DNA of 64,000 nt from Candidatus Hydrogenedentota bacterium (GTDB taxonomy: Bacteria; Hydrogenedentota; Hydrogenedentia; Hydrogenedentales; CAITNO01). The notes below the pieces were generated by a model. It made no database searches, was not told where the DNA came from, and saw only the letters and a program-made list of their open reading frames with translations. The DNA lies in NCBI GenBank assembly GCA_019455225.1, contig JACFMU010000010.1:975-64974 (forward strand). Reading direction: 5' to 3'. Below are positions 17,541 through 58,206 of the stretch, piece after piece. Numbering within the stretch: position 1 is the first letter of the stretch; every line of letters starts with the position of its first letter. Both the position numbers and the translations under genes were made by a program.

Positions 17541-17627
17541 CCGGGCCCGCCACTCGGCGTTGAATCCGGAGGAGGCATGTCAACACATGGACAGGGTGGA
17601 CGAGATGGGAGAGTTCACTAAAAAACC

Positions 17628-18665
17628 TCACAACTGGGCCTTGTTCACCAGTTCCGCGCACTCGGGGTAATCCCAGGGGATTTCGGGGTAGTCCTGCCAC
17701 ATGCGCACGTCGCGGGTGAGTAGTCCGTACATGTCGGGACGGCGCTGGTGCATGGTGCGCAGGTGCTTGCGCTTCCAGCGCAGTTCGGCGAGGTTGACGG
17801 CGGCGCTGACGCAGGAGTCGCCCTGTTTCTTGATGCGGGGATAGAGGCGCATCTGCTCGTGGGGGTCGCTGTAACCGCCAACGGGGGCCACGCAGCCGGG
17901 TCCGGCGAATCCGGTGTTGAAGCCCGCGGTGATGTTGCCGCCGACCACGCATCCGTAGCACTGGGCGGCCATGATGCAGTGCGAGTCCTCGATCATGCCG
18001 TCCCGGCCGTTGATCCACAGGATGATTTCCGCGCCCATGTAGGAGGTGCAGCCCCAGGCCTCGGGGAAGTAGCCGTCGTAGCACTGCAGTATGCCCACGG
18101 GGCCGAAGTCGAGGTGGAACACCTTGAACTCGCTCCCGAGCACGCCCTGCGCCTCGCTGGCAGAGTCTCCGATGGGCGGCCAGAAATGCGGCGCGGGCCC
18201 GGACGCCGGATGGCTCTTCAGGTACCGCCCCACGAGGCTGCCGCCCCGGTCCACCACCCACGCGCTGGTGGACCACTTGTCCCCGTGCGCCTCGACGCAG
18301 CCGGTGATTGCGTTGATGCGATGCTCCCGCGCCAGGGCGAAGAAGCGCCGCGCCGCGTCGTCCTTCGGGGTGATGCGGTGCCCCAGCACATACTCTGGAA
18401 ACACCACCAGGTCCGCGCCGATGTCGGCGGCCTGGCGAAAGAAGGCGGGCATCCGCTCGATGGCGGGGGCAATGCCCTCGCCCGCGGTCAACTGCACCAG
18501 GGTGATGATTGCGCTGTCGCGCGTGCCCAGCGGGGCATCCGCCTCTTTGTTGGGGGCCGCACCGGCGGCGGCCATGCCCGCACCGGCGGCCATGCCCGCG
18601 CCCGCCGTCATGAACCCGCGCCGGGTCAGGGAACTGTCTTTTGGGGGCTGCTGTTGTCGGCTCAT
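17628..18665 (-). CDS. Carbon-nitrogen hydrolase (nitrilase-superfamily) with Tat signal
   Basis: Twin-arginine SLTRRGFMTAGAGMAAGAGMAAAGAAP. CN-hydrolase core with ...FPEYVLG... and ...CYDGYFPE.... AAGGAG RBS before ATG at 18665. Confidence 0.7.
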   Translation of the reverse strand: MSRQQQPPKDSSLTRRGFMTAGAGMAAGAGMAAAGAAPNKEADAPLGTRDSAIITLVQLTAGEGIAPAIERMPAFFRQAADIGADLVVFPEYVLGHRITPKDDAARRFFALAREHRINAITGCVEAHGDKWSTSAWVVDRGGSLVGRYLKSHPASGPAPHFWPPIGDSASEAQGVLGSEFKVFHLDFGPVGILQCYDGYFPEAWGCTSYMGAEIILWINGRDGMIEDSHCIMAAQCYGCVVGGNITAGFNTGFAGPGCVAPVGGYSDPHEQMRLYPRIKKQGDSCVSAAVNLAELRWKRKHLRTMHQRRPDMYGLLTRDVRMWQDYPEIPWDYPECAELVNKAQL

Positions 18666-18920
18666 GGGGCTTTCTCCTTGTTGCCGTGTCATCATAACGG
18701 AAAAAGTGGCGGGGCTGCGGTCTGCATGCCATAGCATGGACGGGGTGGACGGATGGGACGGGAAGAGAAACCACCGCAAGGAGCGAAGGGAACACGAAGA
18801 GGGGGAGGTTGGAGAAGGGGAGGATTGGCCACAAAAGGCACAGGAAGTACAAAAAAAAGGGGAACGGGACAGGGTGGACAGGAGACGCCGCAAATCACCG
18901 GCGGGAATGTCCCTGTCACG

Positions 18921-20441: not shown

Positions 20442-20484
20442 GGGGAAGGTCCCGCCTTGTGGCGCGCGCGGCGCCGGTTTTAGT

Positions 20485-23545: not shown

Positions 23546-23694
23546 GAAATACTCCTGGGACGGCGGGACATGTTTCGCCACCGTGGAAATCCTACACCAT
23601 CGGCCGCGCCGGGGCAACGCCGGGCATAAGGTGTGGACAGGATGGACGAGATGGACGGAGTGCTGCCTGCGGTGGCATCCCTGCCGGGGCTGCG

Positions 23695-24105: not shown

Positions 24106-24216
24106 CGCTCTTGCGCGGCTCCTCTGGTTTGGGCCAATGCGCATAGCGTAGTGCATCAGGCGCGCCCGCGCAAAATTCAGGGATGGGAGGATGCACATTC
24201 GGGGACAGGCCTGCCT

Positions 24217-27944: not shown

Positions 27945-28037
27945 AACTGGGAACGCCCTTCCTGGGAACGCCCTTTCTGGGAACGCCAATCTCCCGATTG
28001 GCTGTTTTAAGATGCCAATCAGGAGATTGGCGTTCCC
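27945..28037. repeat. REP cluster: two degenerate partial units followed by a full inverted REP pair
   Basis: ctgggaacgccctt, cctgggaacgcccttt, then a full forward unit at 27978, an 11-bp spacer and a reverse unit at 28014. Confidence 0.9.
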
Positions 28038-28134
28038 AGAAGAGTGCCGTTCCTAGGAGAGTGCTGTCCCTCTGGCAATGTCGCCGCCGGGGAGGGTATC
28101 ATGGTTGCCGGCAAAACAAGGGGATCCGGAATCC

Positions 28135-29868
28135 ATGTTTGAGCAAGTCTTCAAGAACGTTGACGATGTCCTGTGGAAAGAGGCCGGCTGCACCACGGAG
28201 CTGGACTACACCGAGCAGTCGTCGTGGCTACTTTTCCTGAAATACTTGGACGAACTGGAGCAGGACCGGGCAATGGAGGCGGAACTGGAGGGGCGGGCGT
28301 ATTCGTTCATACTCGACAGTCCGTACCGCTGGGAAAGCTGGGCCGCGCCCAAGGGTCCGGACGGGAAGGTTGACCACAACAGGGCGCTCACGGGCGACGA
28401 CCTGCGCGACTTCGTGAACCTGAAACTCTTCCCCTACCTGCACGGGTTCAAGCAGAAGGCCAGCGGGCCGAACACCATCGAGTACAAGATTGGCGAGATT
28501 TTCGGCGAGCTCAAGAACCGGATTCAGAGCGGCTACAACCTGCGCGAGATCATTGACCACATAGACGAACTGCGCTTCCGCTCGCAGACCGAGAAGCACG
28601 AGCTGTCGCACCTCTACGAGGCGAAGATCAGGAACATGGGCAACGCCGGGCGCAACGGCGGCGAGTACTACACCCCGCGCCCGCTCATCCGCGCCATTGT
28701 CCGGGTGGTGAAACCCAAAATCGGGGAAACCATCTACGATGGGGCCTGCGGCTCCGCGGGCTTCCTGTGCGAGGCTTTCGAGTATCTCAAAAACCCCGGG
28801 AACGACAATCCTGGGAACTACAATCTCCCGATTGGCTCGTCAAAATCTGCCAATCAGGAGATTGGCGTTCCCGGGGAAAGAGCCAATCAGGAGATTGGCG
28901 TTCCCAGGAGAAGCGCTACCGGGCTGAGCGTAAAAGACCTGCAAACGCTCCAGGAACGGACCTTCTACGGCAAGGAGAAGAAGAGCCTCGCCTACGTCAT
29001 CGCCATCATGAACATGATCCTCCACGGCATTGACGCGCCGAACATCCTCCACACGAACACGCTCACGGAGAACCTGGCCGACGTGCAGGAGAAGGACCGT
29101 TTCGACGTGATCCTCGCCAATCCGCCCTTTGGTGCCAAGGAGCGCAGGGAGGTCCAGCAGAACTTCCCCATCCGCACCGGCGATACCGCCTACCTCTTCC
29201 TACAGCACTTCATCAAGATGCTCCGGGCCGGGGGCCGCGCGGGCGTGGTCATCAAGAACACCTTCCTGTCCAACACGGACAACGCCTCCGTCAGCCTGCG
29301 CAGGCTGCTCCTCGAAAGCTGCAACCTGCACACCGTCCTCGACTGCCCCGGCGGCACCTTCTTGGGGGCGGGCGTGAAGACCGTCGTCCTCTTTTTCGAG
29401 AAGGGCGCGCCCACCCGGAAAATCTGGTACTACCAGCTCGACCCCGGACGCAGCCTCGGCAAGACCAACCCCCTCAACGACGACGACCTCGCCGAGTTCG
29501 TCGAACTGCAAAAGACCTGCGCCAACTCCCCCAAAAGCTGGACGGTGGACGCCGCGACCATAGACAAGACGACCTTTGACCTTTCCGTGAAGAACCCCAA
29601 CGGCGGCGAGGAGGTCATCCACCGCAGCCCGCTGGACATCTTGGACGAAATCGCCGCGCTGGACGCCGAAAGCGCCGAAGTGCTGGAAAACATCCGGGTG
29701 TTGCTCACCACCGACTCCGAAAACACCCCCTATGGGAACGCCTCCCCTGGGAACGCCAATCTCCCGATTGGCTCTTCTTCCTCCTCCACCCCTGAAAACG
29801 CCCATCACCCGGTTGGCGAACTGGGGGATGCCAATCGGGAGATTGGCGTTCCCAGGAGGGGAAAATGA
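28135..29868 (+). CDS. hsdM: Type I restriction-modification methyltransferase HsdM (N6-adenine), carrying in-frame REP insertions
   Basis: HsdM_N region (SWLLFLKYLDELE), motif I (YDGACGSAGFL) and motif IV (NPPFG). Repeat-derived peptides NPGNYNLPIGSSKSANQEIGVPGERANQEIGVP sit between motif I and the YGKE block. A second REP pair at the C-terminus precedes the stop. The stop overlaps the hsdS ATG (ATGA). Confidence 0.9.
   Translation: MFEQVFKNVDDVLWKEAGCTTELDYTEQSSWLLFLKYLDELEQDRAMEAELEGRAYSFILDSPYRWESWAAPKGPDGKVDHNRALTGDDLRDFVNLKLFPYLHGFKQKASGPNTIEYKIGEIFGELKNRIQSGYNLREIIDHIDELRFRSQTEKHELSHLYEAKIRNMGNAGRNGGEYYTPRPLIRAIVRVVKPKIGETIYDGACGSAGFLCEAFEYLKNPGNDNPGNYNLPIGSSKSANQEIGVPGERANQEIGVPRRSATGLSVKDLQTLQERTFYGKEKKSLAYVIAIMNMILHGIDAPNILHTNTLTENLADVQEKDRFDVILANPPFGAKERREVQQNFPIRTGDTAYLFLQHFIKMLRAGGRAGVVIKNTFLSNTDNASVSLRRLLLESCNLHTVLDCPGGTFLGAGVKTVVLFFEKGAPTRKIWYYQLDPGRSLGKTNPLNDDDLAEFVELQKTCANSPKSWTVDAATIDKTTFDLSVKNPNGGEEVIHRSPLDILDEIAALDAESAEVLENIRVLLTTDSENTPYGNASPGNANLPIGSSSSSTPENAHHPVGELGDANREIGVPRRGK
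28813..28905. repeat. Three REP units (1 forward, 2 reverse) inside hsdM coding sequence, frame preserved
   Basis: Variant forward unit CTGGGAACTACAATCTCCCGATTGGC, spacer TCGTCAAAATCT, then two GCCAATCAGGAGATTGGCGTTCCC units. Confidence 0.85.
29731..29853. repeat. REP pair (forward + exact reverse-complement unit) at 3' end of hsdM. The reverse unit abuts the hsdS RBS (gcgttcccAGGAGGGGAAAATG).
   Basis: Partial unit tatgggaacgcctcc, a full forward unit at 29747, a 57-bp spacer, and a reverse unit GCCAATCGGGAGATTGGCGTTCCC at 29830. Confidence 0.85.
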
Positions 29869-31007
29869 AAAAGGGGTGGGAGATTAAGACACTGGGCGAA
29901 GTGTGTGAAATCCTGGACCATAAGCGAAAGCCTGTTACCAAGCGGCACCGTGTTAGCGGTCAATACCCATACTATGGTGCAACCGGCATTCAGGATTATG
30001 TGGCCGACTATCTTTTTGATGAGCCACTTGTGTTGGTAGGTGAAGATGGCGCGAAGTGGGGGTCGGGTGAGTGTACGGCTTTTGCGGTAGAAGGAAAATG
30101 CTGGGTCAATAACCATGCTCATGTACTTCGACCATTTCGTGACATCGTCCTTGACAACTGGTTAATTCATTACCTAAATCATTCTGACTTGTCTGAGTAC
30201 GTGTCAGGCTTAACAGTTCCCAAGTTAAATCAAGGTAATCTTCGAGATATCCTCATCCCCCTCCCGCCCCTTGCCGAACAGCGGCGGATCGTGGGCATCC
30301 TCGACGAGGCGTTTGCGGGCATCGCCACCGCCAAGGCCAACGCCGAAAAGAACCTCCAAAACGCCCGCGCCCTCTTTGAAAGCCACCTGAACGCCGTCTT
30401 CACGCAGAAGGGCGAGGGATGGGTGGAGAGGAGGCTGGGGGATGTGTCAGAGGAGTTTGGGCGTGGCAAATCCAAGCATCGCCCACGAAATGATCCAAAG
30501 CTCTACGGCGGAAAATATCCATTTATTCAAACAGGTGATGTGCGTAACTGTGACCACAGAATTACAGCCTACACCCAAACGTACAATGCGATGGGGCTTG
30601 CCCAAAGCAAGTTATGGCCGAAAGGAACTCTCTGTATCACAATTGCAGCCAACATCGCGGAGACTGGTATTCTCGACTTTGACGCCTGTTTTCCCGACAG
30701 TGTCATTGGTGTCGTGGCGGATGAGAAGTCGACGAGCAATAAGTTTTTGGAATACCTTCTCCGAAGCTTCAAGACTCGGTTGCAAGCTCAGGGGAAAGGA
30801 AGCGCCCAAGACAACATCAACCTTGCCACTTTCGAAAATCAAGTTTTCCCATTTCCCGGAAGGCGGGTTCAAGACCAACTCGTCATTGAGCTCGACTCGT
30901 TACGAAAAGACACCCGCCGCCTCGAATCCGTCTACCAGCGCAAGGTTGCCGCACTGGAGGTGTTGAAGAAGTCGCTGCTGCATGAAGCGTTCACGGGGGC
31001 CTTATGA
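29865..31007 (+). CDS. hsdS: Type I R-M specificity subunit HsdS with two target-recognition domains of visibly lower G+C
   Basis: GWEIKTLGEVCEILD start. The central conserved helix is LPPLAEQRRIVGILDEAF...LFESHLNAVF and the C-terminal helix is ...LESVYQRKVAALEVLKKSLLHEAF. Both TRD-encoding segments are AT-richer than their surroundings. Confidence 0.85.
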   Translation: MKKGWEIKTLGEVCEILDHKRKPVTKRHRVSGQYPYYGATGIQDYVADYLFDEPLVLVGEDGAKWGSGECTAFAVEGKCWVNNHAHVLRPFRDIVLDNWLIHYLNHSDLSEYVSGLTVPKLNQGNLRDILIPLPPLAEQRRIVGILDEAFAGIATAKANAEKNLQNARALFESHLNAVFTQKGEGWVERRLGDVSEEFGRGKSKHRPRNDPKLYGGKYPFIQTGDVRNCDHRITAYTQTYNAMGLAQSKLWPKGTLCITIAANIAETGILDFDACFPDSVIGVVADEKSTSNKFLEYLLRSFKTRLQAQGKGSAQDNINLATFENQVFPFPGRRVQDQLVIELDSLRKDTRRLESVYQRKVAALEVLKKSLLHEAFTGAL

Positions 31008-32053
31008 CGCAGGAAAACACCGCTCCTGGGAACGCCAATCTCCCGATTGGCTCTTCAAAATCTGATGCTTCGACCCGGAGGGAAGAGGCCAATCGGGAGA
31101 TTGGCGTTCCCCGGAGGGAAGAGGCCAATCGGGAGATTGGCGTTCCCAGGGGGGAAGAGGCCAATCGGGAGATTGGCGTTCCCAGGGGGGAAGAGGCCAA
31201 TCAGGAGATTGGCGTTCCCAGGGGTGGCGTTCCAAGGGAGGAGGATGACGGAGAGGGCCGGTGGCGCAGCCGGGGTTATTTGCCGCATTTTGATAAGGCG
31301 GAGCGCGCGCAGCATGTGACGTTCCATTTGTCGGACAGTCTGCCGTGGCATGTCCTGAAACGGATGGAGGAGGAGGTCCGCGGATTGCCTGAGGATAAAC
31401 GGGATGTGGAACGGCGCAGGAAAGTGGAAAACTGGCTGGACGCGGGACATGGCTCGTGTGTGCTGCGTGTGCCGGAGGTCGCCCGGAAGGTGCAGGAGTC
31501 GCTGCTCTTTTTCGACGGACAGCGGTACCGCCTCATCGCGTGGGTGGTCATGCCAAACCATGTGCACACGCTTTTTGAACCGCTGCCCGGCTGGTCACTG
31601 AACAAGATTGTCGCGTCGTGGAAGAAGTTCACCGCGCGGATGATCCGCGATTATGAACGGGCGCATCCTGGGAACGGTCCTGGGAACGCGGATCCTGGGA
31701 ACGCCAATCTCCCGATTGGCATCTTCAATACGGCCAATCAGGAGATTGGCGTTCCCAGAGGAGAAGTTCCCGAGAAAATAAACGGGGTTTGGCATCGTGA
31801 GTTCTGGGACCGGTATGTCCGGGATGAACGGCATTTCGAGCGGGTGGTGGAATATATCCACGGGAATCCGGTGACGGCGGGGCTGGTGAAGGTGGCGGAG
31901 GATTGGCCGTGGGGGAGTGCGGGGGTGATTGGAAGGGCCAATCGGGAGATTGGCGTTCCCAAGGAGGAGGCTCCTCGGGGTGAGGGTGCCGGGGAAAGAG
32001 CCAATCAGGAGATTGGCGTTCCCAGGGAGGACGTTCCCAGGGAGGAGGAATAG
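31004..32053 (+). CDS. REP-associated tyrosine transposase (RAYT; IS200/Y1 HuH family). The core is about 31262-31934. The ORF is extended at both ends and interrupted internally by in-frame REP units.
   Basis: WRSRGYLPHFDKAERAQHVTFHLSDSLP is a RAYT N-terminal signature. The HuH motif is NHVHTLF. The C-terminal motif is EFWDRYVRDERHFERVVEYIHGNPVTAGLVKVAEDWPWGSA (Tyr motif plus NPV...DWPW). No IS ends are present. It is flanked by REPs, and its ATG overlaps the hsdS stop (ATGA). Confidence 0.75.
   Translation: MTQENTAPGNANLPIGSSKSDASTRREEANREIGVPRREEANREIGVPRGEEANREIGVPRGEEANQEIGVPRGGVPREEDDGEGRWRSRGYLPHFDKAERAQHVTFHLSDSLPWHVLKRMEEEVRGLPEDKRDVERRRKVENWLDAGHGSCVLRVPEVARKVQESLLFFDGQRYRLIAWVVMPNHVHTLFEPLPGWSLNKIVASWKKFTARMIRDYERAHPGNGPGNADPGNANLPIGIFNTANQEIGVPRGEVPEKINGVWHREFWDRYVRDERHFERVVEYIHGNPVTAGLVKVAEDWPWGSAGVIGRANREIGVPKEEAPRGEGAGERANQEIGVPREDVPREEE
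31025..31219. repeat. REP array: one forward unit then four reverse units arranged as a 36-bp-period tandem repeat (31088, 31124, 31160, 31196)
   Basis: (GGAAGAG)GCCAATCGGGAGATTGGCGTTCCC(AGGGGG) x4 encodes the peptide repeats EEANREIGVPRG. Confidence 0.9.
31677..31766. repeat. Two degenerate partial units plus a full REPIN (forward, 12-bp spacer, reverse) inside the RAYT core ORF
   Basis: cctgggaacggt, cctgggaacgcggat, then CCTGGGAACGCCAATCTCCCGATTGGC ATCTTCAATACG GCCAATCAGGAGATTGGCGTTCCC. Confidence 0.85.
31937..32023. repeat. Two reverse-orientation REP units at 3' end of RAYT ORF
   Basis: GCCAATCGGGAGATTGGCGTTCCC at 31937 and GCCAATCAGGAGATTGGCGTTCCC at 32000. Confidence 0.85.
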
Positions 32054-32172
32054 GGGGTTCTGTCTCACTGGTGAGGCATTCCGGGGCTTTTGTCTCTTTT
32101 TTGCGGTATTTTGAGACGCAAATGGAATATGATTGAGTCTTTGGGGTGGATAATTCGCCCCATGGAGCGGTT

Positions 32173-34662
32173 ATGAATGAAGCCGAAACGAGAGCCGAGC
32201 ACATTGATCCCGCGCTGAAGGCGGCGGGATGGGGTGTGGTGGAGGGCAGCCGCATTCTCCGGGAGCACCGGATCGCGCCGGGACGGCTGCAGGGGGGCGG
32301 GAAACGGCACAAGCCGGAGATCGCGGACTATGTGCTGGTGTACCGCAACCTGAAGCTGGCGGTGGTGGAGGCAAAGCCCTGGGGCGCGCCGTACACGGAG
32401 GGGGTGGCCCAGGCCAAGGAGTACGCGAAAAAACTGGCCGTCCGCTTCACCTATTCGACCAACGGGCAGAAGATTTACGGGATTGACATGGAAACGGGCA
32501 AGGAGGGGGATGTCGCCGACTATCCCGGCCCGGAGGCGCTGTGGACGCTGACCTTTGCGGAGCAGAACGAGTGGCGGGACCGCTTTGCCAAGGTGCCCTA
32601 TGAGGACAAGGGCGGCAGCCACTGCACGCGCTATTATCAGGACATCGCCATCCAGAACGTGATGGAGGCGATTGCGGGCGGGGAGGAGCGGATTCTGCTG
32701 ACGCTGGCCACGGGCACCGGAAAGACCTTCATCGCGTTCCAGATCGCGTGGAAGCTCTTCCACAGCCGCTGGACCCTGAACCGGGACGCCCAGCGGCGCC
32801 CGCGCATCCTCTTCCTGGCGGACCGCAACATTCTGGCGGACCAGGCGTACAACGCCTTTTCCGCGTTCCCGGAGGATGCGATGGTGCGGATTGCCCCGGA
32901 GGACATCCGCAAGAAGGGGAAGGTGCCCAAGAACGGGAGTATCTTCTTCACCATCTTCCAGACTTTCATGTGCGAAAATGGCAACACGACCTCTGGAAAC
33001 GCACTGCCCGGGAACGCCAATCTCCCGATTGGCTCTTCCTCCCCTGGGAACGCCAATCTCCCGATTGGCTCTTCAAAGTCTGCCAATCAGGAGATTGGCG
33101 TTCCCAGGGAGGACATTCCCAGGGAGGACGGCCCCGCGTATTACTTCGGCGGGTACCCGCAGGATTTCTTTGACCTGATCATCATTGACGAGTGCCACCG
33201 GGGCGGCGCGAACGATGAAAGCAGTTGGCGGGGCATCATGGAGTATTTTTCGCCCGCCGTGCAGTTGGGGCTGACCGCCACGCCGAAGCGGAAGGAGAAC
33301 GCGGACACCTACAAGTATTTTGGCGAGCCGGTGTTCGTGTATTCCCTGAAGGACGGCATCAACGACGGCTACCTCACGCCGTTCAAGGTGAGGCAGATAT
33401 CCACCACGCTGGACGAGTATGTGTACACCCCGGACGATGTGCTGGTCGAGGGCGAGGTCGAACAGGGGAAGCGGTACACGGAGAAGGACTTCAACAAGAT
33501 CATCGAGATAAAGGAGCGCGAGGCGTACCGGGTGGGGCTGTTCATGGAGATGATTGACCAGCGGGAAAAGACGCTGGTGTTCTGCGCCACACAATTGCAC
33601 GCGCTGGCCGTGCGCGACCTGGTCAACCAGATGAAGTCCGCCAAGGACCCGGACTACTGCCACCGGGTGACCGCTGACGACGGGAAGCTGGGCGACCAAT
33701 GGCTGCGCGACTTTCAGGACAACGAGAAGAGCGTTCCGACCATCCTGACCACCTCGCAGAAACTCTCCACCGGGGTGGACGCGCGCAATGTGCGCAACAT
33801 CGTGCTGATGCGCCCCGTCAACTCGATGATCGAGTTCAAGCAGATCATCGGGCGCGGCACCCGGCTCTATGACGGCAAGGACTACTTCACCATATACGAC
33901 TTCGTGAAGGCGCACCACCATTTCAGCGACCCGGAGTGGGACGGGGAACCTGCGGAACCGACGGGGCCGACAATAACGCGCGTGAAAGAGGACCCGCCGG
34001 AACCGCCGTACCCCGGCCCGGAGCCCCCGGAACCGCGCAAGGAGAAAATTCGGATTAAACTGGCCGACGGGAAGGAGCGCGCCATCCAGCACATGGCGGC
34101 GACCACTTTCTGGAGCCCGGACGGCACGCCGATGTCCGCCGCCCAGTTCCTCGAAAGCCTCTTCGGTGCGCTGCCGGACTTCTTTAAAAACGAGGACGAG
34201 TTGCGGGCCATATGGAGCGTTCCGGACACACGGAAGGCGTTTCTCCAAGGGTTGGCCGACAGGGGCTTTGGCCCGGAGCCGATGGCGGAGATGCAGCGGA
34301 TAATTGACGCCGAAAAGAGCGACCTCTTCGACGTGCTGGCCTATGTGGCGTTTGCCATGCCGACCGTCACCCGCGCGGAGCGCGCCGCCGCCGCCAGGAC
34401 CCGCCTGCATGGGCGCTTCACCGCGAAGCAGGAGGCCTTCCTCGACTTTGTGCTGTCCCATTATGTGCGCCAGGGCGTGGAGGAACTGGACCAGGAGAAA
34501 CTGGCCCCGTTGATCAGGCTCCGCTACAACAACGCCGTGGCCGACGCTGTCGCCGACCTGGGCAAACCCCATGAAATCAGGCGGATTTTTACCGGGTTCC
34601 AGAAGTACCTCTACCAGCCCGCCCATGGCGGCACACATCGGTACGGTTTCGCCTCCGCCTGA
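32173..34662 (+). CDS. hsdR: Type I restriction enzyme R subunit HsdR (helicase/nuclease) with in-frame REP insertion
   Basis: N-terminal nuclease region (AETRAEHIDPALKAAGW...YVLVYRNLKLAVVEAK). Helicase motif I is LATGTGKTF and DEAH-type motif II is IIIDECHRG. The repeat-derived peptide ALPGNANLPIGSSSPGNANLPIGSSKSANQEIGVP lies between motifs Ia and II. Confidence 0.85.
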   Translation: MNEAETRAEHIDPALKAAGWGVVEGSRILREHRIAPGRLQGGGKRHKPEIADYVLVYRNLKLAVVEAKPWGAPYTEGVAQAKEYAKKLAVRFTYSTNGQKIYGIDMETGKEGDVADYPGPEALWTLTFAEQNEWRDRFAKVPYEDKGGSHCTRYYQDIAIQNVMEAIAGGEERILLTLATGTGKTFIAFQIAWKLFHSRWTLNRDAQRRPRILFLADRNILADQAYNAFSAFPEDAMVRIAPEDIRKKGKVPKNGSIFFTIFQTFMCENGNTTSGNALPGNANLPIGSSSPGNANLPIGSSKSANQEIGVPREDIPREDGPAYYFGGYPQDFFDLIIIDECHRGGANDESSWRGIMEYFSPAVQLGLTATPKRKENADTYKYFGEPVFVYSLKDGINDGYLTPFKVRQISTTLDEYVYTPDDVLVEGEVEQGKRYTEKDFNKIIEIKEREAYRVGLFMEMIDQREKTLVFCATQLHALAVRDLVNQMKSAKDPDYCHRVTADDGKLGDQWLRDFQDNEKSVPTILTTSQKLSTGVDARNVRNIVLMRPVNSMIEFKQIIGRGTRLYDGKDYFTIYDFVKAHHHFSDPEWDGEPAEPTGPTITRVKEDPPEPPYPGPEPPEPRKEKIRIKLADGKERAIQHMAATTFWSPDGTPMSAAQFLESLFGALPDFFKNEDELRAIWSVPDTRKAFLQGLADRGFGPEPMAEMQRIIDAEKSDLFDVLAYVAFAMPTVTRAERAAAARTRLHGRFTAKQEAFLDFVLSHYVRQGVEELDQEKLAPLIRLRYNNAVADAVADLGKPHEIRRIFTGFQKYLYQPAHGGTHRYGFASA
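32994..33105. repeat. REP units inside hsdR (two forward, one reverse, plus a partial)
   Basis: Forward units at 33008 and 33043, spacer TCTTCAAAGTCT, reverse unit at 33082. Confidence 0.85.
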
Positions 34663-42970: not shown

Positions 42971-43834
42971 TTATACGGGTTGGAACAGGGTCGCAGGCGA
43001 GATTTTTCGTTCCAGATTATTCAGGATTATGTCCAGATCAATCTTTGCCTTGGCCTGAAGACCCAGCGCGGTGGATATCCCGGCGCTGTCCGTGCTCATT
43101 CGTCCATCAAGACGGATGGCATAAGAGGCTCCTTTTCGCTCAAGACCGTAGGTGTGGAAATGCATGGCATCTCCTGCACGGGCCTGGTTGAGGTGCGAGA
43201 ATGAAAACTCCGTCTTCATGTAATCAAACAGGCAATCCTGAACAACCACAACAAGATGCCGTGAAAGATGCTCGAAAGTGTCAACCTTGTGGTGCAACTG
43301 CACAAGAATGGTTTTCGCGGTCATTTTCCAGTTCATGCCAAAAGGTTTGCGTGATTCTGTTGCAGCCGTGTCGCACGCAAATCCCATGTCCCGTAAAAAC
43401 CGTTCCCTGGCGGGCCACACTGTGCCCGTGGTGTCAAGCGTCTGAATCTCAATCCCCACGAAATCCACCGGTTTGTCGTTTCGCACCGAAACAAGGAAAT
43501 AATCAACACTGCCGCCCGGGACGGGGACCTCCGGCACCAGATGCAACTGATTGCCCGGCTCATGGCGCGTGAGGAGATGCAGGGAATCAACAAATATCTG
43601 CCGCCTTTCGAGAAACCGGTTCGGGCATATCAGAATGGGGCCGCACTCTTTTCCGTAACCCACGGAGCATGTTCCAATGGAGATGCCGGGCTGGCTCTTT
43701 CGGACCTTGTAACACCGCCTTTTTGTGAACGGGCATAACTGCCGCGAGATGATGTCTTCCCACGCTTTGCGTTTTGTGGAGCGCGTGTCATGGCCAAAGA
43801 GTTCCAAAATTGCGCTCATAGCAGTGTCCAACAC
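42971..43834 (-). CDS. Putative type II restriction endonuclease (partner of adjacent methyltransferase)
   Basis: No recognisable motif. The call rests on a 19-bp overlap with the MTase gene, shared lower G+C, and the typical R-M size. Confidence 0.4.
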   Translation of the reverse strand: MLDTAMSAILELFGHDTRSTKRKAWEDIISRQLCPFTKRRCYKVRKSQPGISIGTCSVGYGKECGPILICPNRFLERRQIFVDSLHLLTRHEPGNQLHLVPEVPVPGGSVDYFLVSVRNDKPVDFVGIEIQTLDTTGTVWPARERFLRDMGFACDTAATESRKPFGMNWKMTAKTILVQLHHKVDTFEHLSRHLVVVVQDCLFDYMKTEFSFSHLNQARAGDAMHFHTYGLERKGASYAIRLDGRMSTDSAGISTALGLQAKAKIDLDIILNNLERKISPATLFQPV

Positions 43835-44937
43835 CTGTTTTCAGCCATACGGACATAGTCGCCGGAAATGTCTATCCCCACAGATTTGCGCCCGAGTTGA
43901 AGGGCAACCAGGTTCGTTGTCCCTGTTCCGCAAAATGGGTCGAGCGCCATGCCGCCTGCCGGACAGGTCGCTAGAATGGGAATTCTGCAAAGGTCCTCCG
44001 GGTAGGGTGCGAAATGGGCACCGCGCATTTGCGTGTCTTCCGGGATAATCTCCCAGACATCACCCGGCTTGCTCCCATTGGGATGATATTTCAGGAAATA
44101 GAAACCCTTATCGCGAAGCTCCTTGGCGCGCCCGGACAAGTTCTCGGAGTCTGAATGCGTGGTCCGCTGCTGTCCCCTGATAATCATTCGAAAATCCGAG
44201 ATTTCCCTGTTTCTGACCTGGTCCAGCATGCCTTCCAACGCCGCCAGGGCATTTGCCTTCTCATCTTCGGAGAGCGCTGTTGACAACTCGATCTGCCGTT
44301 TGTACCTCACACCGCTCACCCCCGTGGCGGAGATGACGGCGCCGTTCACGACCTGCGCCTGCCTTGGCGTGCTTCTGACTGCGTCAACATCATAGTAATA
44401 ACCATTGGCGTTTTTCACAAAATGGAACAGCGGTTCATGAATGTTGCGGAGTCTGTCTTTTGAGTTGTCCGGCCCCCCTTTTACCTTGTTCCACACCACT
44501 TGATTGCGCAGTATCCACCCCTGTCCATCCATCATGGCTATCGCGACACGCCACGGAATCCCCAACAACTGCTTGCTCTCATAGCTGTCGCCGACATTAA
44601 GCCAAAAGGAGCCCGAGGGCTTCAAAACCCTGCGCACCTCCCCAAACACTTCCAGCAGCGCTCGGACATACTCTTCCGGACTGTCCTCAAGGCCAATCCC
44701 GCCATTGCTGTATTCGCGCTTCTTCCAGTACGGGGGGCTTGTCATGCAAAAGTCAACGCTGGATTCGGGCAGAACCGAAAGGACACCGCAGGCTTCCCCG
44801 GTAAAAAACAGCGGGCGAAGGGCGGCGCCCTGGACATACTCCCGAAACGCTCCAGCCACGAGGGCCTCCCGCTCCTTTGCCGGAGAAATGCGCCGCATCC
44901 TGTTGAGTGTGTCTGTGTGAATGGATGGGTTCTGCAT
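43816..44937 (-). CDS. DNA N4/N6 methyltransferase (beta-class, ParB-like-free)
   Basis: Motif IV (SPPY) precedes motif I (DPFCGTGTT), which is the beta-class order. Lower G+C than the flanks. Confidence 0.8.
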   Translation of the reverse strand: MQNPSIHTDTLNRMRRISPAKEREALVAGAFREYVQGAALRPLFFTGEACGVLSVLPESSVDFCMTSPPYWKKREYSNGGIGLEDSPEEYVRALLEVFGEVRRVLKPSGSFWLNVGDSYESKQLLGIPWRVAIAMMDGQGWILRNQVVWNKVKGGPDNSKDRLRNIHEPLFHFVKNANGYYYDVDAVRSTPRQAQVVNGAVISATGVSGVRYKRQIELSTALSEDEKANALAALEGMLDQVRNREISDFRMIIRGQQRTTHSDSENLSGRAKELRDKGFYFLKYHPNGSKPGDVWEIIPEDTQMRGAHFAPYPEDLCRIPILATCPAGGMALDPFCGTGTTNLVALQLGRKSVGIDISGDYVRMAENRCWTLL

Positions 44938-45156
44938 GATAATCAAAGCACCGCCATACTGTTTTGCATGCTGGTCAAGGCTGTGATCGGCTCCGGGCAA
45001 ATGGCCGTGCCGGCTTCCTGTCCCGGTGTCACGTCATATATCAGCGCGGTTAAGCCGACAACAACACAACAACGACACCTTTAATTTTTAAGGATGATAA
45101 CATAGCGGCGGCATCTTGGGAGGACGAGAGCACGATTGGAAATCGCCTGGGTAATG

Positions 45157-45519
45157 TCACCCCTTCGGCTTCCTTGACCTTCCGGCGCGTTTCTTGGGTG
45201 GCGGGGCGTCGTCCTCGGCCTCGGCGGCGAGGAGGAGGAAGAGGTCGGAGATCATCTCCCTTCCGGCGAGGCGGTTGATGCGGCGGATAATTTCCCATTT
45301 GCAGTAGGCGAAGGTGTTCATCCAGGCGGTGTCGTCCACGGCCACCTTCAGCACTTTGTCCTTCACGCCGACGGGCCGGCCATGGCCCGCGAGCTGCTGT
45401 CCGGCGACGGCGGGCCAGTGCTCCCAGATGCGGGCCTCGTCCAGCACCCTGCCCAGGGGGGTGGTGCGGGCCAGTTTGCGCAGGATGTCCTTGATGTTCG
45501 CCGGGTCATTCTCTTTCAA
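45157..45519 (-). CDS. DUF721/DciA-like protein
   Basis: A ~120-aa protein with WEHWPAVAG...VKDKVLKVAVDDTAWMNTF, immediately downstream of recF, as in conserved recF-DUF721-gyrB neighbourhoods. Confidence 0.6.
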   Translation of the reverse strand: MKENDPANIKDILRKLARTTPLGRVLDEARIWEHWPAVAGQQLAGHGRPVGVKDKVLKVAVDDTAWMNTFAYCKWEIIRRINRLAGREMISDLFLLLAAEAEDDAPPPKKRAGRSRKPKG

Positions 45520-46579
45520 GGCGGCCGCCCTCCATGCGGAACATGTCCGGCGCGGGCACGCCCCCCCGCAGGGGGTGCTCCGGCTGGGTGGTGGTGATGA
45601 GGGACTGCACGCCCTCCGGCACGGCGGCGAAGAGGCGCCGGGCGCGCTCCGGATCGAGCTCGGCGAGCACCTCGTCGAGCATGAGCACGGGCCAGACTCC
45701 GGCGCGGCGGCGCACCAGTTCCACCTCGGCCAGTTTCAGGGCGAGCACGGCGGACTTCTGCTGTCCCTGCGAGCCGAAGACCCGCGCGGGCTGCCCGTCT
45801 ATGAGCAGTTCCAGGTCGTCCCGGTGGGGGCCGCGCCCGGTCATGCGCTGGCGCAGGTCGGCGGCGCGGGCGCGGGCCAGTGTCGCGGCGAGGTCCTCCG
45901 CGCGGCGCACGTCGGGCAGGTAGGCCATGGACAGGGACTCGTTCCCCGCGATGGTCCGGTAGACCCCCTCGGCCAGTTCCGACAGCTCGGCGACAAAGGC
46001 CGCGCGCGCCTCCATCAGCGTCTGCCCGTGCCGGACCAGTTGAACGTCCCACACGTCCAGCATTTCCCCGTCGGGCGCGGCGGCGCGCAGCAGCTCGTTC
46101 CGCTGGCGCAGCGCCTGCCGGTACTGCTGGAGCGCCGCCAGATAGACCGGCTGGAGTTGGGAGAGTTCCATGTCCATGAGGCGGCGGCGCACCGATGCGG
46201 AGCCCTTCACCAGCGCCACGTCGTCCGGGCAGAACAGCACCACCTTGAGGCGTCCCAGCAGGTCGCTCAGGCGGCCCTGGGCGACGCCGTTCACCTTGAA
46301 GCGCTTTGCGCCGTTCCACCAGTTCGCCTCGATGTCGAGGCTTTCCCCGTCGTGCTCCGCCTCAATCCGCACGTGGAACCGGTCCTCCCCGTGCCGGACC
46401 AGTTCCGTCTCCGCTGCGGTGCGGTGGCTTTTCGTGGTGGCGGCGTAGAGCACCGCCTCCAGGAGCGTGGTCTTCCCCTGGGCGTTCTGGCCGTGGATGA
46501 CGTTCACCCCCGGCCCCGGCGTGAAGTCCACCGAGGTCAGGCTCCTGAAGTTCCGGCAGATGACGCGGGTGAGGCGCAT
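45506..46579 (-). CDS. recF: DNA replication and repair protein RecF
   Basis: MRLTRVICRNFRS...NVIHGQNAQGKTTLLEA Walker A and the SMC-like signature. Confidence 0.9.
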   Translation of the reverse strand: MRLTRVICRNFRSLTSVDFTPGPGVNVIHGQNAQGKTTLLEAVLYAATTKSHRTAAETELVRHGEDRFHVRIEAEHDGESLDIEANWWNGAKRFKVNGVAQGRLSDLLGRLKVVLFCPDDVALVKGSASVRRRLMDMELSQLQPVYLAALQQYRQALRQRNELLRAAAPDGEMLDVWDVQLVRHGQTLMEARAAFVAELSELAEGVYRTIAGNESLSMAYLPDVRRAEDLAATLARARAADLRQRMTGRGPHRDDLELLIDGQPARVFGSQGQQKSAVLALKLAEVELVRRRAGVWPVLMLDEVLAELDPERARRLFAAVPEGVQSLITTTQPEHPLRGGVPAPDMFRMEGGRLERE

Positions 46580-46947
46580 GCGCTGGGGCTCACATTCCCG
46601 CAACGGCGGGTATGGTGTTGATTTTGGCGGGTGCGGACATGGGGGAACGCCTCCGGGTTGATGGCCGGCCCATTATAGCCGTTGCGGAAACCAATGCCCA
46701 ACAGAAACACGGAACCGATGCCGTGCTAACTTGGAGACACACCGCTGAAAATCTACCGGATTTATAGAAATTCGTGAAACACCGGTTTTTCTCTTTGACG
46801 GGGGAATATGCTATGCTGGACCGGTTGACAGGCCAGTGGCAGTGGTGTGTTTCGGCGTCGCCGCCCGTTGTGTTCAGGAATGCGCATGGTGCCTTTCCAG
46901 CGGCGAATGCCGGCCTGCCAGGGACTTATTTTCAAGGGAGACGGGTC

Positions 46948-49353: not shown

Positions 49354-49448
49354 CGTCTTAGGGGTATCCCAAAGCCGCCGGCCGGACTGGCCGGCGGCTT
49401 TTTCTGTTTCTTACGCCCGCGTGGGTTGTTCCTACTGGATGGACATAA

Positions 49449-49520
49449 GGGACGGAAGGGACCGAAGGGACCGAAGGGACCGAGTGGACAGAGTGGACAG
49501 AGTGGACAGAGTGAACTGGG
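49449..49520. repeat. Eight consecutive 9-bp units (AGGGACCGA x4, GTGGACAGA x3-4), followed at 49530-49568 by opposing GTCCGTGNCC units
   Basis: Direct reading of the sequence. Perfect 9-bp periodicity. Confidence 0.9.
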
Positions 49521-49672
49521 TAGTCCGTGCCAGTCCGTGTCCGTCCGTGTCCGTCCGCGTCGTGTCTTTTCTCGGTGCGGGGCTTGTGGTACCATAGGGT
49601 CAGGATGACCCATCCATGCGGGGCCGCGCGGGTGCGCAAATTGCCAAAATTGCCGCGGCCGGGGACGAAAGC

Positions 49673-52382: not shown

Positions 52383-52885
52383 GTGATCCGGCGAAAGGGG
52401 ACGGGGCCGCGCCGGTCATCCGCCATGAGACGGCGGGCGGCGTGGTGGTCAACGGCGCCGGGCGCGTGCTGGTGCTCCTGCGCGACGTGTGGCGTGACGG
52501 CGGCGCCGTGCATGAAATCCGCCTGCCCAAGGGCCACATAGACGCGGGCGAGACCCCCGAACAGGCGGCGGTTCGCGAGGTGCGCGAGGAGTCCGGATAC
52601 CGGGGGCTGGAGATTGTTGCTGACCTGGGCGAGTCAGAAAGCCGCTACGCGTTCCGGGGATGCCGCCATGAGCGCCGGGAACGGTACTACCTCATGCGCC
52701 TCACAGACCCGGAACGCGGCGACCCACAGCCCATGGGCGCCGAAGAAGCGCTCTTCGAGCCCGCGTGGCTCGCGCCGGAGGACGCCGCGCAGCGGCTCAC
52801 CTATCCGAGCGAGCGGGACTTTGTCCGCAGGGCCATGGAGCGGCTGGCGGGTGCGGCGGCGGACCGGGACTCAACGGGCGGATAA
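52379..52885 (+). CDS. NUDIX hydrolase
   Basis: The Nudix box is GHIDAGETPEQAAVREVREESG. Confidence 0.75.
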   Translation: MSDPAKGDGAAPVIRHETAGGVVVNGAGRVLVLLRDVWRDGGAVHEIRLPKGHIDAGETPEQAAVREVREESGYRGLEIVADLGESESRYAFRGCRHERRERYYLMRLTDPERGDPQPMGAEEALFEPAWLAPEDAAQRLTYPSERDFVRRAMERLAGAAADRDSTGG

Positions 52886-53800: not shown

Positions 53801-53834
53801 TGAAAGACTCCTGTGTGAGCGGCGGGCCGCACGG

Positions 53835-53875
53835 CTATGGACAGTATGGACAGTATGGACGGCATGGACGGCACG
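53835..53875. repeat. 9-bp tandem units TATGGACAG x2 / TATGGACGG / CATGGACGG
   Basis: Direct reading of the sequence. Confidence 0.85.
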
Positions 53876-53983
53876 ACGCAACGCGCCTTGACAGGGGGAC
53901 TGGCTCCCAGCGTGCGTTTAAGCGGTGGTGTCTCAATCACACGGTTTGTGCAACCGGCGCCCATGCCCGAAACCTTGTTCCCC

Positions 53984-56356: not shown

Positions 56357-56382
56357 CATGGGTTCCTTCTGATGGTTGCGGC

Positions 56383-57414
56383 TCAGGCCTTTCGGGGCGT
56401 CCACGTTTCCTCGCCGCCGGCCAGGGTCTCAAGAAAGGCGGCCTCCCGCTCCGCCAGCCGGTCAATCCACGGCTGCGCGCCGCAGGGCCGGTGTATCCCG
56501 TTTTCGTCCATCCATTGGACGGTCTCCCGCACGCCGTCCTCCCACGGTTTCAGGTCCGTGAACTCCGGCACGTCGGCCTTCAGCGCGGCGTTCGAGTAGG
56601 CCGCGTTGTACTGGAAGTTTTCCCGGAGCATCTGCGTCTGGTCTTTGGGCGCGCCCGCCGCGATTTGGCGCGTGGTCATGGGCACGATGTTCGCCTCGCG
56701 GCCCAGGGCGCGGGCCATGCGCTTGTGGAAATTCCGCCAGTTCATGATCTCGTCGCCGACGACGTTGTAGGCCCTGCCGAGGGTGGCCGGACGGCCCAGC
56801 GCGCCAACAAAGCCCTTGGCCACGTCGTCCACATGCCCCGGCTGCCACAGGCCGCGCCCGTCGCCGGGCACGATGATGGGCCGCCCCTCGCGGATTCGGC
56901 TCACCAGGCAGGGGTTGTACCCCCAGATGTCCAGCAGGGGCTGTCCCGGCCCGTAGCAGTGGGACGGGCGGAATATGGTCACGGGAAACCCGTCCTTCCC
57001 GAAGGCCGCCATGAACACCGCCTCGGCCGCGCTCTTGCCGCGCCCATACTCGCTCACCGGCTTGTGCGGCTCGTCCTCCGTCGCGGGGATGCTGTCCAGC
57101 GGCCCGCCATAGACGCACACGGTGCTGCAGAAGAGATACTGCCCGGTCTTTCCCGAAAACACCTCCACCGCGTGCCGCGCCCGCCCCGCGTCATAGGTGA
57201 TCATGTCAATCACCGCGTCCGCGTTCACGCCGCGAACCTTCTCCGCAAACGCCGTGTTGTCGCCCCGGTCCCCCTTGATGACGCGCGCCTCCCCGCGGAG
57301 ACGGGGCGACGTGGTGCCCCGGTTGAACAGCACCGGCTCATGGCCGCAGTCCAGCAGACGGTTCACAATGGCCGTGCTGATTAATCCAGTTCCGCCGATG
57401 ACAAGCACGCGCAT
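56383..57414 (-). CDS. NAD-dependent epimerase/dehydratase (extended SDR)
   Basis: MRVLVIGGTGLIS Rossmann motif and a YxxxK catalytic dyad (YGRGK). Confidence 0.8.
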   Translation of the reverse strand: MRVLVIGGTGLISTAIVNRLLDCGHEPVLFNRGTTSPRLRGEARVIKGDRGDNTAFAEKVRGVNADAVIDMITYDAGRARHAVEVFSGKTGQYLFCSTVCVYGGPLDSIPATEDEPHKPVSEYGRGKSAAEAVFMAAFGKDGFPVTIFRPSHCYGPGQPLLDIWGYNPCLVSRIREGRPIIVPGDGRGLWQPGHVDDVAKGFVGALGRPATLGRAYNVVGDEIMNWRNFHKRMARALGREANIVPMTTRQIAAGAPKDQTQMLRENFQYNAAYSNAALKADVPEFTDLKPWEDGVRETVQWMDENGIHRPCGAQPWIDRLAEREAAFLETLAGGEETWTPRKA

Positions 57415-57543
57415 GGTTTGATTCCTTGTGTCCGGGTTCCGGGAAAAGGAGCATCCGCCACCATGATAACCCAAGACAGTGGAGAATGGACAACGGATAA
57501 TGGACAGCGGGACGGAATGGACAGGGCGGACAGGGTGGGCGGG

Positions 57544-58206
57544 TTAACGCCGACAGCAGGCGCCGCCGGGGTTCCACGCGCCCACGGCCAGCAGCATCTG
57601 CGCCGTGTAGTACGCCGCCAGACTCGCCAAAAGGCTCGCGGGCGTGGCCGCCGCGTAGCGCGCGTGCATGTACAGGAAGCCCGCCAGCACGAGGCATGCG
57701 GCCCCCGCGAAGGCCGTGCGGTTTTTGGCCACCACGCCGCCCGCCAGCGCGGTGATTATGGTGGCCAGCACGGCGTAGGCCCAGAACACCGGCACCTCCT
57801 CGCGGGGGGACACCTCGCCCGAGAGCCAGCCGAAGAGCGCGGCGTTCACCGCCAGCGCCGCCACCCCCGCAATGAGGACGTGTTTCCAGCGCGGCCGGTC
57901 AAGGAGAAACCCGACGGGCAGGAAGAGGTGCGCCAGAATCATGGTGGCCAGTTGCACCACCATGTCCCCGCGCCCAAAAGTTCCCGCCGCCAGCATGGCC
58001 AGCAGCATGGCGATCACCATGCGCCCGTAACAGGCCGACAGCCCCCGGAGAAGCAGGGCGCCCAACAGGGCCACCGGGGCATACAGCCCCAGGACCCTGC
58101 CCGGGTCGCCCCTAAGTCCGGCCCACATGGCCAGGGGAATCAGGGCCGCCATAAAAACGGCCAGCCCAAACCGCCACTTCGCCGAGGCGACAAACTTGTT
58201 GTTCAT
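57544..58206 (-). CDS. Hypothetical polytopic membrane protein
   Basis: About 6 TM helices. AGGAG RBS before ATG 58206. No diagnostic motifs. Confidence 0.4.
   Translation of the reverse strand: MNNKFVASAKWRFGLAVFMAALIPLAMWAGLRGDPGRVLGLYAPVALLGALLLRGLSACYGRMVIAMLLAMLAAGTFGRGDMVVQLATMILAHLFLPVGFLLDRPRWKHVLIAGVAALAVNAALFGWLSGEVSPREEVPVFWAYAVLATIITALAGGVVAKNRTAFAGAACLVLAGFLYMHARYAAATPASLLASLAAYYTAQMLLAVGAWNPGGACCRR

Follow-up and report, generated by a model that had tools for sequence, protein, structure and literature searches.

Introduction

The genomes of heterocystous cyanobacteria contain short tandemly repeated repetitive (STRR) sequences, in which short units are repeated in tandem at many intergenic loci. 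These repeats are lineage specific, occur in several variants, and have no assigned function. Other small repeats dispersed in bacterial genomes are miniature inverted-repeat transposable elements (MITEs), of which the Correia, ERIC, and RUP elements are examples. Short tandem units also serve as operators of ribbon-helix-helix proteins, with 8-bp units for MetJ and 7-bp units for omega. Here, we analyzed a 64-kb stretch of DNA from a "Candidatus Hydrogenedentota" bacterium (GenBank assembly GCA_019455225.1, contig JACFMU010000010.1, positions 975 to 64,974; referred to below as the window). The window has a G+C content of 65.7%, and a first-pass annotation made from its sequence had described six intergenic arrays of a TGGAC-containing unit repeated every 9 bp. 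Our results suggest that these arrays form a young family of short extragenic tandem repeats, dispersed among intergenic spacers and restricted to one species, that resembles STRR or repetitive extragenic palindromic (REP) sequences and is not a set of regulon operators, a reading to which we give about an even chance of being correct.

Results

The six arrays (sites 1 to 6, numbered along the window) are all present, with coordinates that had to be shifted by 1 to 10 bp, and a seventh one, at 18864 to 18882 (site 2b), had been missed. The unit is 9 bp long with the consensus RTGGACRGN and is a direct repeat without internal dyad symmetry. When the window was scanned with a dimer model of the unit (RTGGACRGNRTGGACRG, at most two mismatches), 19 matches were found, versus 0.73 ± 0.75 expected from dinucleotide-preserving shuffles; the arrays are thus nonrandom, as had been claimed. 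Eighteen of the 19 matches were on the plus strand, and 17 were within the seven intergenic sites, yet noncoding DNA makes up roughly 5% of the window. Spacings of 9, 18, 27, and 36 bp between GGAC motifs occurred 25, 26, 16, and 18 times, respectively, on the plus strand and 4, 2, 3, and 4 times on the minus strand. For all pentamers in the window, 30 triple chains were counted at a period of 9, 28 of them in the TGGAC arrays, versus 0 to 7 at periods of 6 to 8 and 10 to 12. A search for GGAC chains with a 9-bp spacing returned all seven sites on the plus strand, and the leftover chains, with two or three members, were in coding DNA. Tandem Repeats Finder (TRF) independently called period-9 arrays at 49447 to 49513 and 53836 to 53869. 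The TGGAC 9-mers were the sole short-period repeat family of such a kind in the window, and, as in STRR families, the same short unit occurred in tandem at seven separate intergenic loci within 64 kb. Adjacent units inside one array resembled each other more than they resembled units of other arrays, a signature of local duplication.

Two gene maps were used, one based on G+C content at third codon positions (GC3 frame map) and the other on independent gene calls from public contigs with identical proteins. Both placed every array between genes, which confirmed the intergenic location described at first. None of the arrays lies in an open reading frame (ORF) or in a −35 to −10 spacer; they either precede candidate −10 elements or follow stop codons. 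The placement typical of phase-variable contingency loci, in an ORF or a promoter spacer, was therefore rejected for them.

Next, the arrays were compared with those of a close strain (from SRR27370451; 97.4 to 99.7% DNA identity to the window) and of more distant relatives; L numbers denote loci from other genomes. At sites 1, 2, 2b, and 3, the arrays were identical in the strain at 97.4% identity (L492), so they were inherited and are not assembly artifacts. Independent assemblies were also identical, the window sequence matching contigs of the metagenome-assembled genome (MAG) GCA_012515115.1. For one protein, the nearest homologs with a name, at 64% identity or less, were from "Candidatus Hydrogenedentes." At site 6 of the close strain (L002), exactly one 9-bp unit, corresponding to 57519 to 57527, was absent. 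Five substitutions were also found there, three of them at core positions and including an adjacent AC/GT double change; they belong to a 660-bp tract that is about 2.6% divergent. In this one strain comparison, therefore, the unit number differed by one 9-bp unit at site 6, and four of the five comparable arrays were invariant at 2.6% divergence. Hypermutability of the arrays was considered after a first estimate of an about 19-fold excess of changes at site 6. It was rejected because the local tract is itself divergent and the four other arrays are unchanged, leaving no clear excess.

The presence of whole arrays also varied. At site 5, the close strain (L002) and a relative of about 90% identity (L485) carry a two-gene zeta-toxin-like or toxin-antitoxin-like cassette instead. 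In the window, this place is taken by the array and 100 bp of unique DNA, of which neither the window nor the related loci contained a second copy. The edge of the array is precisely where homology with the 90% relative picks up again. Before the epimerase gene (site 6), L485 has no array, yet the TATCAT −10-like element is retained; in relatives at 72 to 76% identity, the distance between the YhhN-like gene and the epimerase gene is just 19 bp. Seven related genomes were sampled by protein homology and not by the motif (L124, L485 to L489, and L493; 127 kb in total). No array of three GGAC units was found in these 127 kb, where about 8 to 10 would be expected at the density of the window, and period-9 arrays of whatever core were almost nil. 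Arrays were thus present in the strain with 97 to 99% identity and missing in every relative sampled whose DNA identity was 90% or lower. The first-pass annotation had proposed a comparison of the motif in relatives, where the arrays turned out not to be kept, including at the positions orthologous to sites 5 and 6. The lack of arrays in the 127 kb indicates that the family is limited to a species-level lineage, with turnover at individual sites. Such lineage restriction without conservation at orthologous positions is what would be expected of STRR-like repeats. The best-supported conclusion from these sequence comparisons is that the family has probably been gained and lost over short evolutionary distances, changing by whole units.

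The cassette at site 5 is an indel flanked by the K and GDPD genes, positions 53838 to 53978 of the window being replaced by L002:4350-5527 or L485:11954-13108. In a Pfam search, its larger gene matched zeta toxin weakly in L002 and had no match in L485.

To see how far similar arrays occur elsewhere, 185,579 species genomes were scanned for the exact pattern, and at least 120 loci were obtained. Actinobacteria accounted for about a third of the matches listed, for the most part with perfect CTGGACGGN-type repeats within ORFs. Another 41 among the matches listed were from Verrucomicrobiota/Lentisphaerae, Planctomycetota, Chlamydiae, Hydrogenedentota, Sumerlaeota, and Poribacteria, which are small phyla in the scanned collection. 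Several MAGs among the matches listed were hit two to five times, and several 8-kb loci held further independent arrays. The similar arrays were patchily distributed over the Planctomycetes-Verrucomicrobia-Chlamydiae (PVC) group, Hydrogenedentota, and other phyla, and inverted pairs were frequent among them. At loci of the PVC/Hydrogenedentota type, the RTGGAC core was kept and the remaining positions varied. Many of these outside arrays were convergent pairs, (TGGAC-N4)n followed by (N4-GTCCA)n, and paired arrays folded into long hairpins (L025, z = −12.6, followed by a U run; L039, z = −9.5). As a control, the permuted cores GGTCA and GCAGT at period 9 were searched for in viral contigs. They also gave at least 120 matches, with similar spacer variability and rates of inverted partners. 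Permuted cores being equally easy to find, raw match counts say nothing about whether TGGAC is special, and the notion of cross-phylum conservation from such counts was rejected. Weight in the outside data therefore comes only from the taxon skew, the genomes with multiple matches, and the pair architecture.

Some of the outside loci had distinctive contexts. A Chlamydiae MAG (L025) carried two copies, at 3330 to 3540 and 5660 to 5830, of a palindromic MITE-like element of about 210 bp whose arms are TGGAC arrays. The element has the terminal inverted repeat ACATGTTCACGCAATGCGTCAACTTAAGGGAA, and its copies differ in spacer bases, the TGGAC cores being fixed; it thus has some features of a MITE, unlike the arrays of the window. 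In four Verrucomicrobia/Lentisphaerae genomes (L014:3100-4100, L018:4400-5420, L079:5300-6100, and L102:5040-5900), arrays lay directly upstream of a gene for a four-helix-bundle plus suffix domain protein (TIGR02436/TIGR04258; PF05635, 23S rRNA intervening-sequence [IVS] protein). In L079, arrays were also found downstream of this gene, inverted. In L018 and L102, the linker of the protein contained a paired array, placed in frame and at one and the same position in both. These loci, outside the window, are the strongest lead to a dedicated protein or mobile system; a tblastn search of the 64-kb window did not find such a gene. In Oligosphaera ethanolica (L048:4950-6300) and in L067:1-500, a repeated noncoding element of about 650 bp had degenerate TGGAC 9-mers in its 5′ part, and both copies in L048 matched the Rfam Acido-Lenti-1 RNA (RF01687; 40.3 bits versus a gathering threshold of 37). 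Literature searches found no paper containing the array strings and nothing relevant on 9-bp or nonanucleotide intergenic repeats or on repeats of Hydrogenedentes.

The orientation of the arrays was then examined. The first-pass annotation had stated that all of them read TGGAC on the same strand. This holds for the dimer matches, with the single exception noted above; nevertheless, an inverted GTCC array adjoins site 4, and an inverted partner unit is present at site 2b. The orientation had also been regarded as independent of the flanking genes, but the sole site between plus-strand genes (site 4) has both orientations. In the outside genomes, the G-rich strand of the arrays agreed with the local GC skew at a ratio of 41:19, and of 36:20 (P = 0.04) after 500 bp around the arrays was masked. 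Relative to transcription, arrays in co-directional spacers of these genomes were TGGAC-sense and GTCCA-sense in equal numbers (12 versus 12). There was a 17:6 trend in position: TGGAC-sense arrays tended to follow closely on the stop codon of the upstream gene and GTCCA-sense arrays to precede the next start codon by 40 to 140 bp, so that arrays point into the spacer. The window departs from this trend, all seven arrays being TGGAC on the plus strand, the strand with most genes. No significant link of the outside arrays to divergent (promoter-only) spacers was detected (3 observed versus about 6 expected). A strand-biased architectural motif, as had been suggested, is in keeping with the bias in the window and weakly with the outside GC skew. 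A replication-related orientation bias is possible.

A resemblance of the unit to the complement of a DnaA box had been noted as weak, and it is weak indeed: only one array unit matches the high-GC box complement TGTGGACAA with no more than one mismatch. The boxes were tested as the 9-mer TTWTNCACA and in a high-GC form, TTGTCCACA, with at most one mismatch. In the window, TGTGGACAA had 21 such matches versus 9.1 expected; one was in an array (23632 to 23640), and the rest were scattered in coding DNA. DnaA boxes were rejected as an explanation: the units are off consensus, neither oriC, dnaA, nor dnaN is found among the flanking genes, and the arrays are gone at orthologous sites. Plasmid or phage iterons were likewise rejected, since no replication initiator or origin is adjacent and the flanking genes are metabolic or housekeeping ones.

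At the RNA level, transcription in the direction of the minus-strand genes would turn the solo arrays into C-rich, G-poor RNA that starts 0 to 110 nucleotides (nt) past the stop codons, and the C-G skew in the first 100 nt was +0.15 to +0.31 after four of five stop codons. This RNA folded worse than shuffled sequences (z = +1.2 to +2.0); at site 6 (z = +2.0), 199 of 200 shuffles were more stable. At site 2b, the units and their inverted partner form a predicted hairpin of −28.7 kcal/mol (z = −3.1; 1 of 200 shuffles as stable), followed by eight U residues as read from the sequence, which is the predicted shape of an intrinsic terminator. Strong canonical intrinsic terminators were found only twice in the 27 kb scanned. 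A hairpin role of the site 4 pair was rejected, its folding being not significant (z = −0.97). No Rfam family reached its gathering threshold in the window. A CsrA-type GGA sponge RNA was rejected because there are too many loci and five of six sites are antisense to the neighboring genes, as were G-quadruplexes, since G3 tracts occur in some arrays only and the conserved A and C would be left unexplained.

The individual sites were as follows. Site 1 (17587 to 17613, plus strand) is ATGGACAGG GTGGACGAG ATGGGAGAG, two good units and a decayed one. It lies in an 87-bp spacer between convergent genes, a small plus-strand ORF ending at 17540 and a CN-hydrolase gene (minus strand) ending at 17628, and so does not have the layout first described, downstream of one gene and upstream of the next. 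Site 2 (18736 to 18762, plus strand) is ATGGACGGG GTGGACGGA TGGGACGGG and lies 70 to 100 bp upstream of the CN-hydrolase start (18665, minus strand). It is one end of a tract of about 190 nt that is purine rich on the plus strand and pyrimidine rich in the gene sense. Site 2b (plus strand) is CGGGACAGG GTGGACAGG and lies 39 bp downstream of the DoxX-like stop codon (18921, minus strand); its terminator-like hairpin spans 18851 to 18919 on the minus strand and includes the inverted partner TGTCCCTGTC (18908 to 18917) before the U8 tract. The entire 255-bp spacer between the DoxX-like and CN-hydrolase genes (18666 to 18920) has a purine skew of +0.36 on the plus strand, and in the minus-strand transcript there would be a polypyrimidine stretch, about 190 nt long, bounded on either side by arrays. 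Site 3 (23632 to 23659, plus strand) is TGTGGACAG GATGGACGA GATGGACGG, between the HNH stop codon (23695) and the TPR start codon (23545), both on the minus strand.

Site 4 has two arms. Arm 1 (49439 to 49513, plus strand) has eight units in two homogeneous blocks, three to four copies of AAGGGACCG and then three copies of GAGTGGACA, and lies past a strong intrinsic terminator of the upstream plus-strand gene and about 160 bp before clpS (clpS-clpA). Arm 2 (49522 to 49561) reads GGAC on the minus strand and is AGTCCGTGTC repeated four times on the plus strand (four copies of GTCCGTGTCC); it directly adjoins arm 1, and TRF described it as period 10 with 4.0 copies and 90% matches. Site 5 (53836 to 53872, plus strand), with two copies of TATGGACAG followed by TATGGACGG and CATGGACGG, is 35 bp upstream of the GDPD start codon (53800, minus strand), at the edge of the 141-bp segment in whose place L002 and L485 have the cassette. 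Site 6 (57474 to 57542, plus strand) has about seven units, several of them decayed, with spacings of 14, 8, 9, 9, and 9 bp. It reaches from the YhhN-like stop codon (57544, minus strand) to shortly upstream of the TATCAT element (57463 to 57468, minus strand) of the epimerase gene. Sites 2, 2b, 3, 5, and 6 are thus between co-directional minus-strand genes and site 4 is between plus-strand genes.

No common function links the flanking genes (CN-hydrolase, DoxX-like, Wzy/TPR, HNH, Ig-domain protein, ClpS, GDPD, epimerase, and YhhN-like), and the flanks of the seven window arrays have nothing in common beyond the arrays themselves. Neither terminal inverted repeats nor target duplications, the marks of a MITE, were found around the window arrays. 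A sigma-70-like consensus match (AAGACA-17-GATAAT, 9 of 12 positions) was found inside site 6 at 57473 to 57501 on the plus strand, aiming antisense into the YhhN-like gene. The arrays were also considered as −35-like elements (TGGACA versus TTGACA) or as fixed-distance activator sites, and these candidates were rejected: the distance from the array to the candidate −10 element varies from 19 to 41 nt, site 5 leaves no room for a promoter, and the match in site 6 is the only promoter-like one that overlaps an array.

The window also contains a second, unrelated repeat family. Copies of CTGGGAACGCCAATCTCC and of its inverted partner are spread between 24215 and 38793, most densely from 27977 to 33107, and number 24 versus 0.11 expected. 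They are mostly arranged as inverted pairs, with a 36-bp block repeated four times in tandem at 31080 to 31224, and some copies are inside the predicted hsdM, hsdS, and hsdR ORFs. An ORF with a Y1 transposase domain (31004 to 32053, plus strand) lies between hsdS and hsdR of this type I restriction-modification system, an arrangement similar to that of REP sequences with a REP-associated tyrosine transposase (RAYT), i.e., a REPtron. This ORF is flanked by the CTGGGAACGCCAATCTCC repeats and not by TGGAC arrays, which are thus no REPtron. Elsewhere, a 24-bp tandem repeat, CGCAAGCAGGGGGGATAAAAGAGA (60030 to 60115; 3.5 copies, 77% matches), lies in the spacer between divergent GFO/IDH/MocA oxidoreductase and AAT-family genes. 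A NotI-like restriction endonuclease gene beside an N6/N4 DNA methylase gene (42971 to 45000, minus strand) forms a type II restriction-modification pair, and a gene for a RecF/SMC-like AAA ATPase (45506 to 46603) follows this pair.

Discussion

If the arrays are a young family of extragenic tandem repeats, they may lengthen and shorten by slipped-strand mispairing. They may be seeded, or spread, as palindromic elements with paired arrays, solo arrays being half-elements or expansions in situ. Any phenotypic effect would be generic and at the RNA level: paired units could form hairpin terminators, as at site 2b with its U8 tract, and solo arrays, in the five minus-strand gene contexts, could give structure-free, C-rich YC-repeat RNA past the stop codons, similar to Rho utilization (Rut) sites. 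The genome tolerates extragenic repeats, as shown by the separate REP-like family with its IS200-like Y1 transposase gene in the window. Several observations weigh against this reading. Neutral slippage does not explain why the arrays share a GGAC core, why the other positions vary, or why there are no arrays of other cores; the substitution rate inside the arrays is not clearly raised (five changes at site 6 and none in four other arrays). The seven arrays on the plus strand have one orientation (two-sided P of about 0.016 if they are independent), which is not predicted by a purely neutral model. Spread by transposition has no support from terminal repeats or target duplications at the window arrays. 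A Rut-like effect is not general, given the 12:12 orientation elsewhere and the tendency of stop-proximal outside arrays to be G rich in RNA, and the plus-strand genes of the window carry no GTCCA arrays.

We weighed the other explanations against the same data. A regulon operator was rejected because of the unrelated flanking genes and because the arrays are dispensable at orthologous sites. The same unrelated genes, together with the array-free 127 kb of relatives and the TATCAT element kept without an array, argue against the sequence-specific binder of the first-pass annotation, if this is taken as a conserved regulator. The arrays could in principle be a chance or compositional artifact of a 66% G+C genome, such as a codon-like CTG-GAC periodicity. 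GGAC pairs at multiples of 3 bp are indeed frequent in coding DNA, and our control scans showed that 9-bp arrays of arbitrary cores are plentiful in large databases. However, the window has no such arrays of any other core, and the period-9 pentamer counts and the excess of dimer matches, concentrated in the small noncoding fraction, refute this explanation, whose probability is negligible. A strand-polar signal oriented by replication, such as KOPS (FtsK-orienting polar sequences), Chi, Ter, or DnaA-box clusters, read on the leading strand independently of genes, would account for the uniform orientation of the seven arrays on the strand with about three quarters of the window coding sequence and for the GC skew agreement in other genomes, even under the stricter masking. 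Some units also hold GGACAGGG, one mismatch off the Escherichia coli KOPS GGGNAGGG. On the other hand, some arrays have inverted partners beside them (site 4, site 2b, and many outside loci), the skew association is weak, and a single unit is near a DnaA box, other DnaA-like matches being in coding DNA. Known polar motifs are moreover single 8-mers, mostly intragenic and conserved among relatives, and do not form intergenic tandem arrays. We consider such a signal very improbable.

Selected Rho-dependent terminators or insulators would work through (CYGUCCAYN)n RNA, in which spaced YC dinucleotides would load Rho and block read-through into the next gene. Mapped Rut sites are reported to be YC-rich, G-poor, unstructured RNA (PMC9499579), and untranslated array RNA in the sense of the minus-strand genes, and in that sense only, has these features and is unusually unstructured. 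Five of the six spacers after minus-strand genes have a C-rich array at the short distance past the stop codon given above, and the sixth has a strong intrinsic terminator instead; such terminators are few in the region scanned. Against this, arrays in other genomes have no preferred orientation relative to transcription, plus-strand genes of the window lack GTCCA arrays, and relatives lack arrays at the same gene ends. Rut sites also need no fixed pentamer, which leaves the conserved GGAC unexplained. We therefore consider it rather unlikely that the arrays were selected as terminators. For the same reasons, namely, the inconsistent orientation elsewhere, the array-free gene ends of relatives, and the plus-strand genes without arrays, RNA-level effects are not shown to be why the arrays exist; it is plausible that they are consequences of the arrays. 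Since slippage does not explain the GGAC core and the 9-bp period, a binding protein and a mobile system were kept as alternatives. The arrays may be platforms for a patchily distributed, horizontally acquired, sequence-specific DNA- or RNA-binding protein, each 9-bp unit accommodating one protomer via GGAC, much as tandem 7- to 8-bp units do for ribbon-helix-helix proteins; candidates include the four-helix-bundle (23S rRNA IVS/Avd-like) proteins. Such a protein would explain the GGAC core that is common to the window arrays and to both L025 element copies while the rest varies, and the patchy distribution suits a mobile binder. At four PVC loci, arrays flank the four-helix-bundle gene, two of these loci having them in frame in the linker, an association that we estimate, without a computation, to be above expectation for a rare gene family. 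However, that gene was not found in the window, the distance from the arrays to promoters or start codons is not conserved, and related genomes do without the arrays at orthologous sites. Of the five substitutions at site 6, the only strain comparison that is informative here, three hit core positions, and a 9-bp period sets successive sites on different faces of the helix. This explanation seems to us unlikely. Rather unlikely, too, is that an element or protein system not yet described, spreading horizontally, uses the arrays as its recognition sequences or terminal repeats; it would seed palindromic pairs, leave solo arrays behind, and prefer the leading strand. Such a system would be patchy in PVC, Hydrogenedentota, Sumerlaeota, Chlorobi, and other phyla and may be linked to the four-helix-bundle genes (23S rRNA IVS/Avd-like; TIGR02436/TIGR04258).

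What the arrays mean depends on which explanation is right. As plain lineage-specific repeats, they would be of modest value: they would mark recently remodeled spacers and could serve as variable-number tandem repeats (VNTRs) for strain typing, and they should not be annotated as regulatory sites. If the GGAC core and the 9-bp period reflect a protein or a mobile element, an uncharacterized repeat or mobile system would be present across poorly studied phyla. A true link to the four-helix-bundle IVS-like proteins would give a testable function to a very common family of "hypothetical" genes.

Compared with described systems, the arrays, as young extragenic repeats, resemble STRR sequences in having few to many tandem short units at many intergenic loci and in being lineage specific; they differ in that STRR sequences have 7-bp units and belong to cyanobacteria, whereas the units here have 9 bp, a GGAC core, and sometimes form inverted pairs. 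REP sequences, their bacterial interspersed mosaic elements (BIMEs), and REPINs (REP doublets forming hairpins), with their RAYT of the IS200-like Y1 type, are likewise extragenic, species specific, and present in high copy number in co-directional or convergent spacers, with hairpin doublets and effects on transcript ends, but REP sequences are imperfect palindromes of 20 to 40 nt and the TGGAC arrays are tandem 9-mers. MITEs are similar to the outside paired arrays as small palindromic insertions (the two-copy element of about 210 bp in L025 and the in-frame linker insertions in L018 and L102); unlike the window arrays, they have terminal inverted repeats, target duplications, and conserved internal sequence. 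VNTRs and contingency loci change by whole units between strains, as does site 6, but they lie in ORFs or between the −35 and −10 elements, unlike the arrays here, of which four of the five comparable ones were invariant between strains. Rut sites are YC rich, G poor, and unstructured, like the arrays in the sense of the minus-strand genes close past their stop codons, but they have neither a consensus pentamer nor a fixed period, and arrays elsewhere are inconsistently C rich in transcripts. Finally, DnaA-box clusters, iterons, and ribbon-helix-helix operators share the head-to-tail arrangement of short units, with opposed subarrays at oriC and omega operators; these are found in one control region, whereas the arrays described here are at many unrelated loci, with no dnaA, rep, or par gene nearby.

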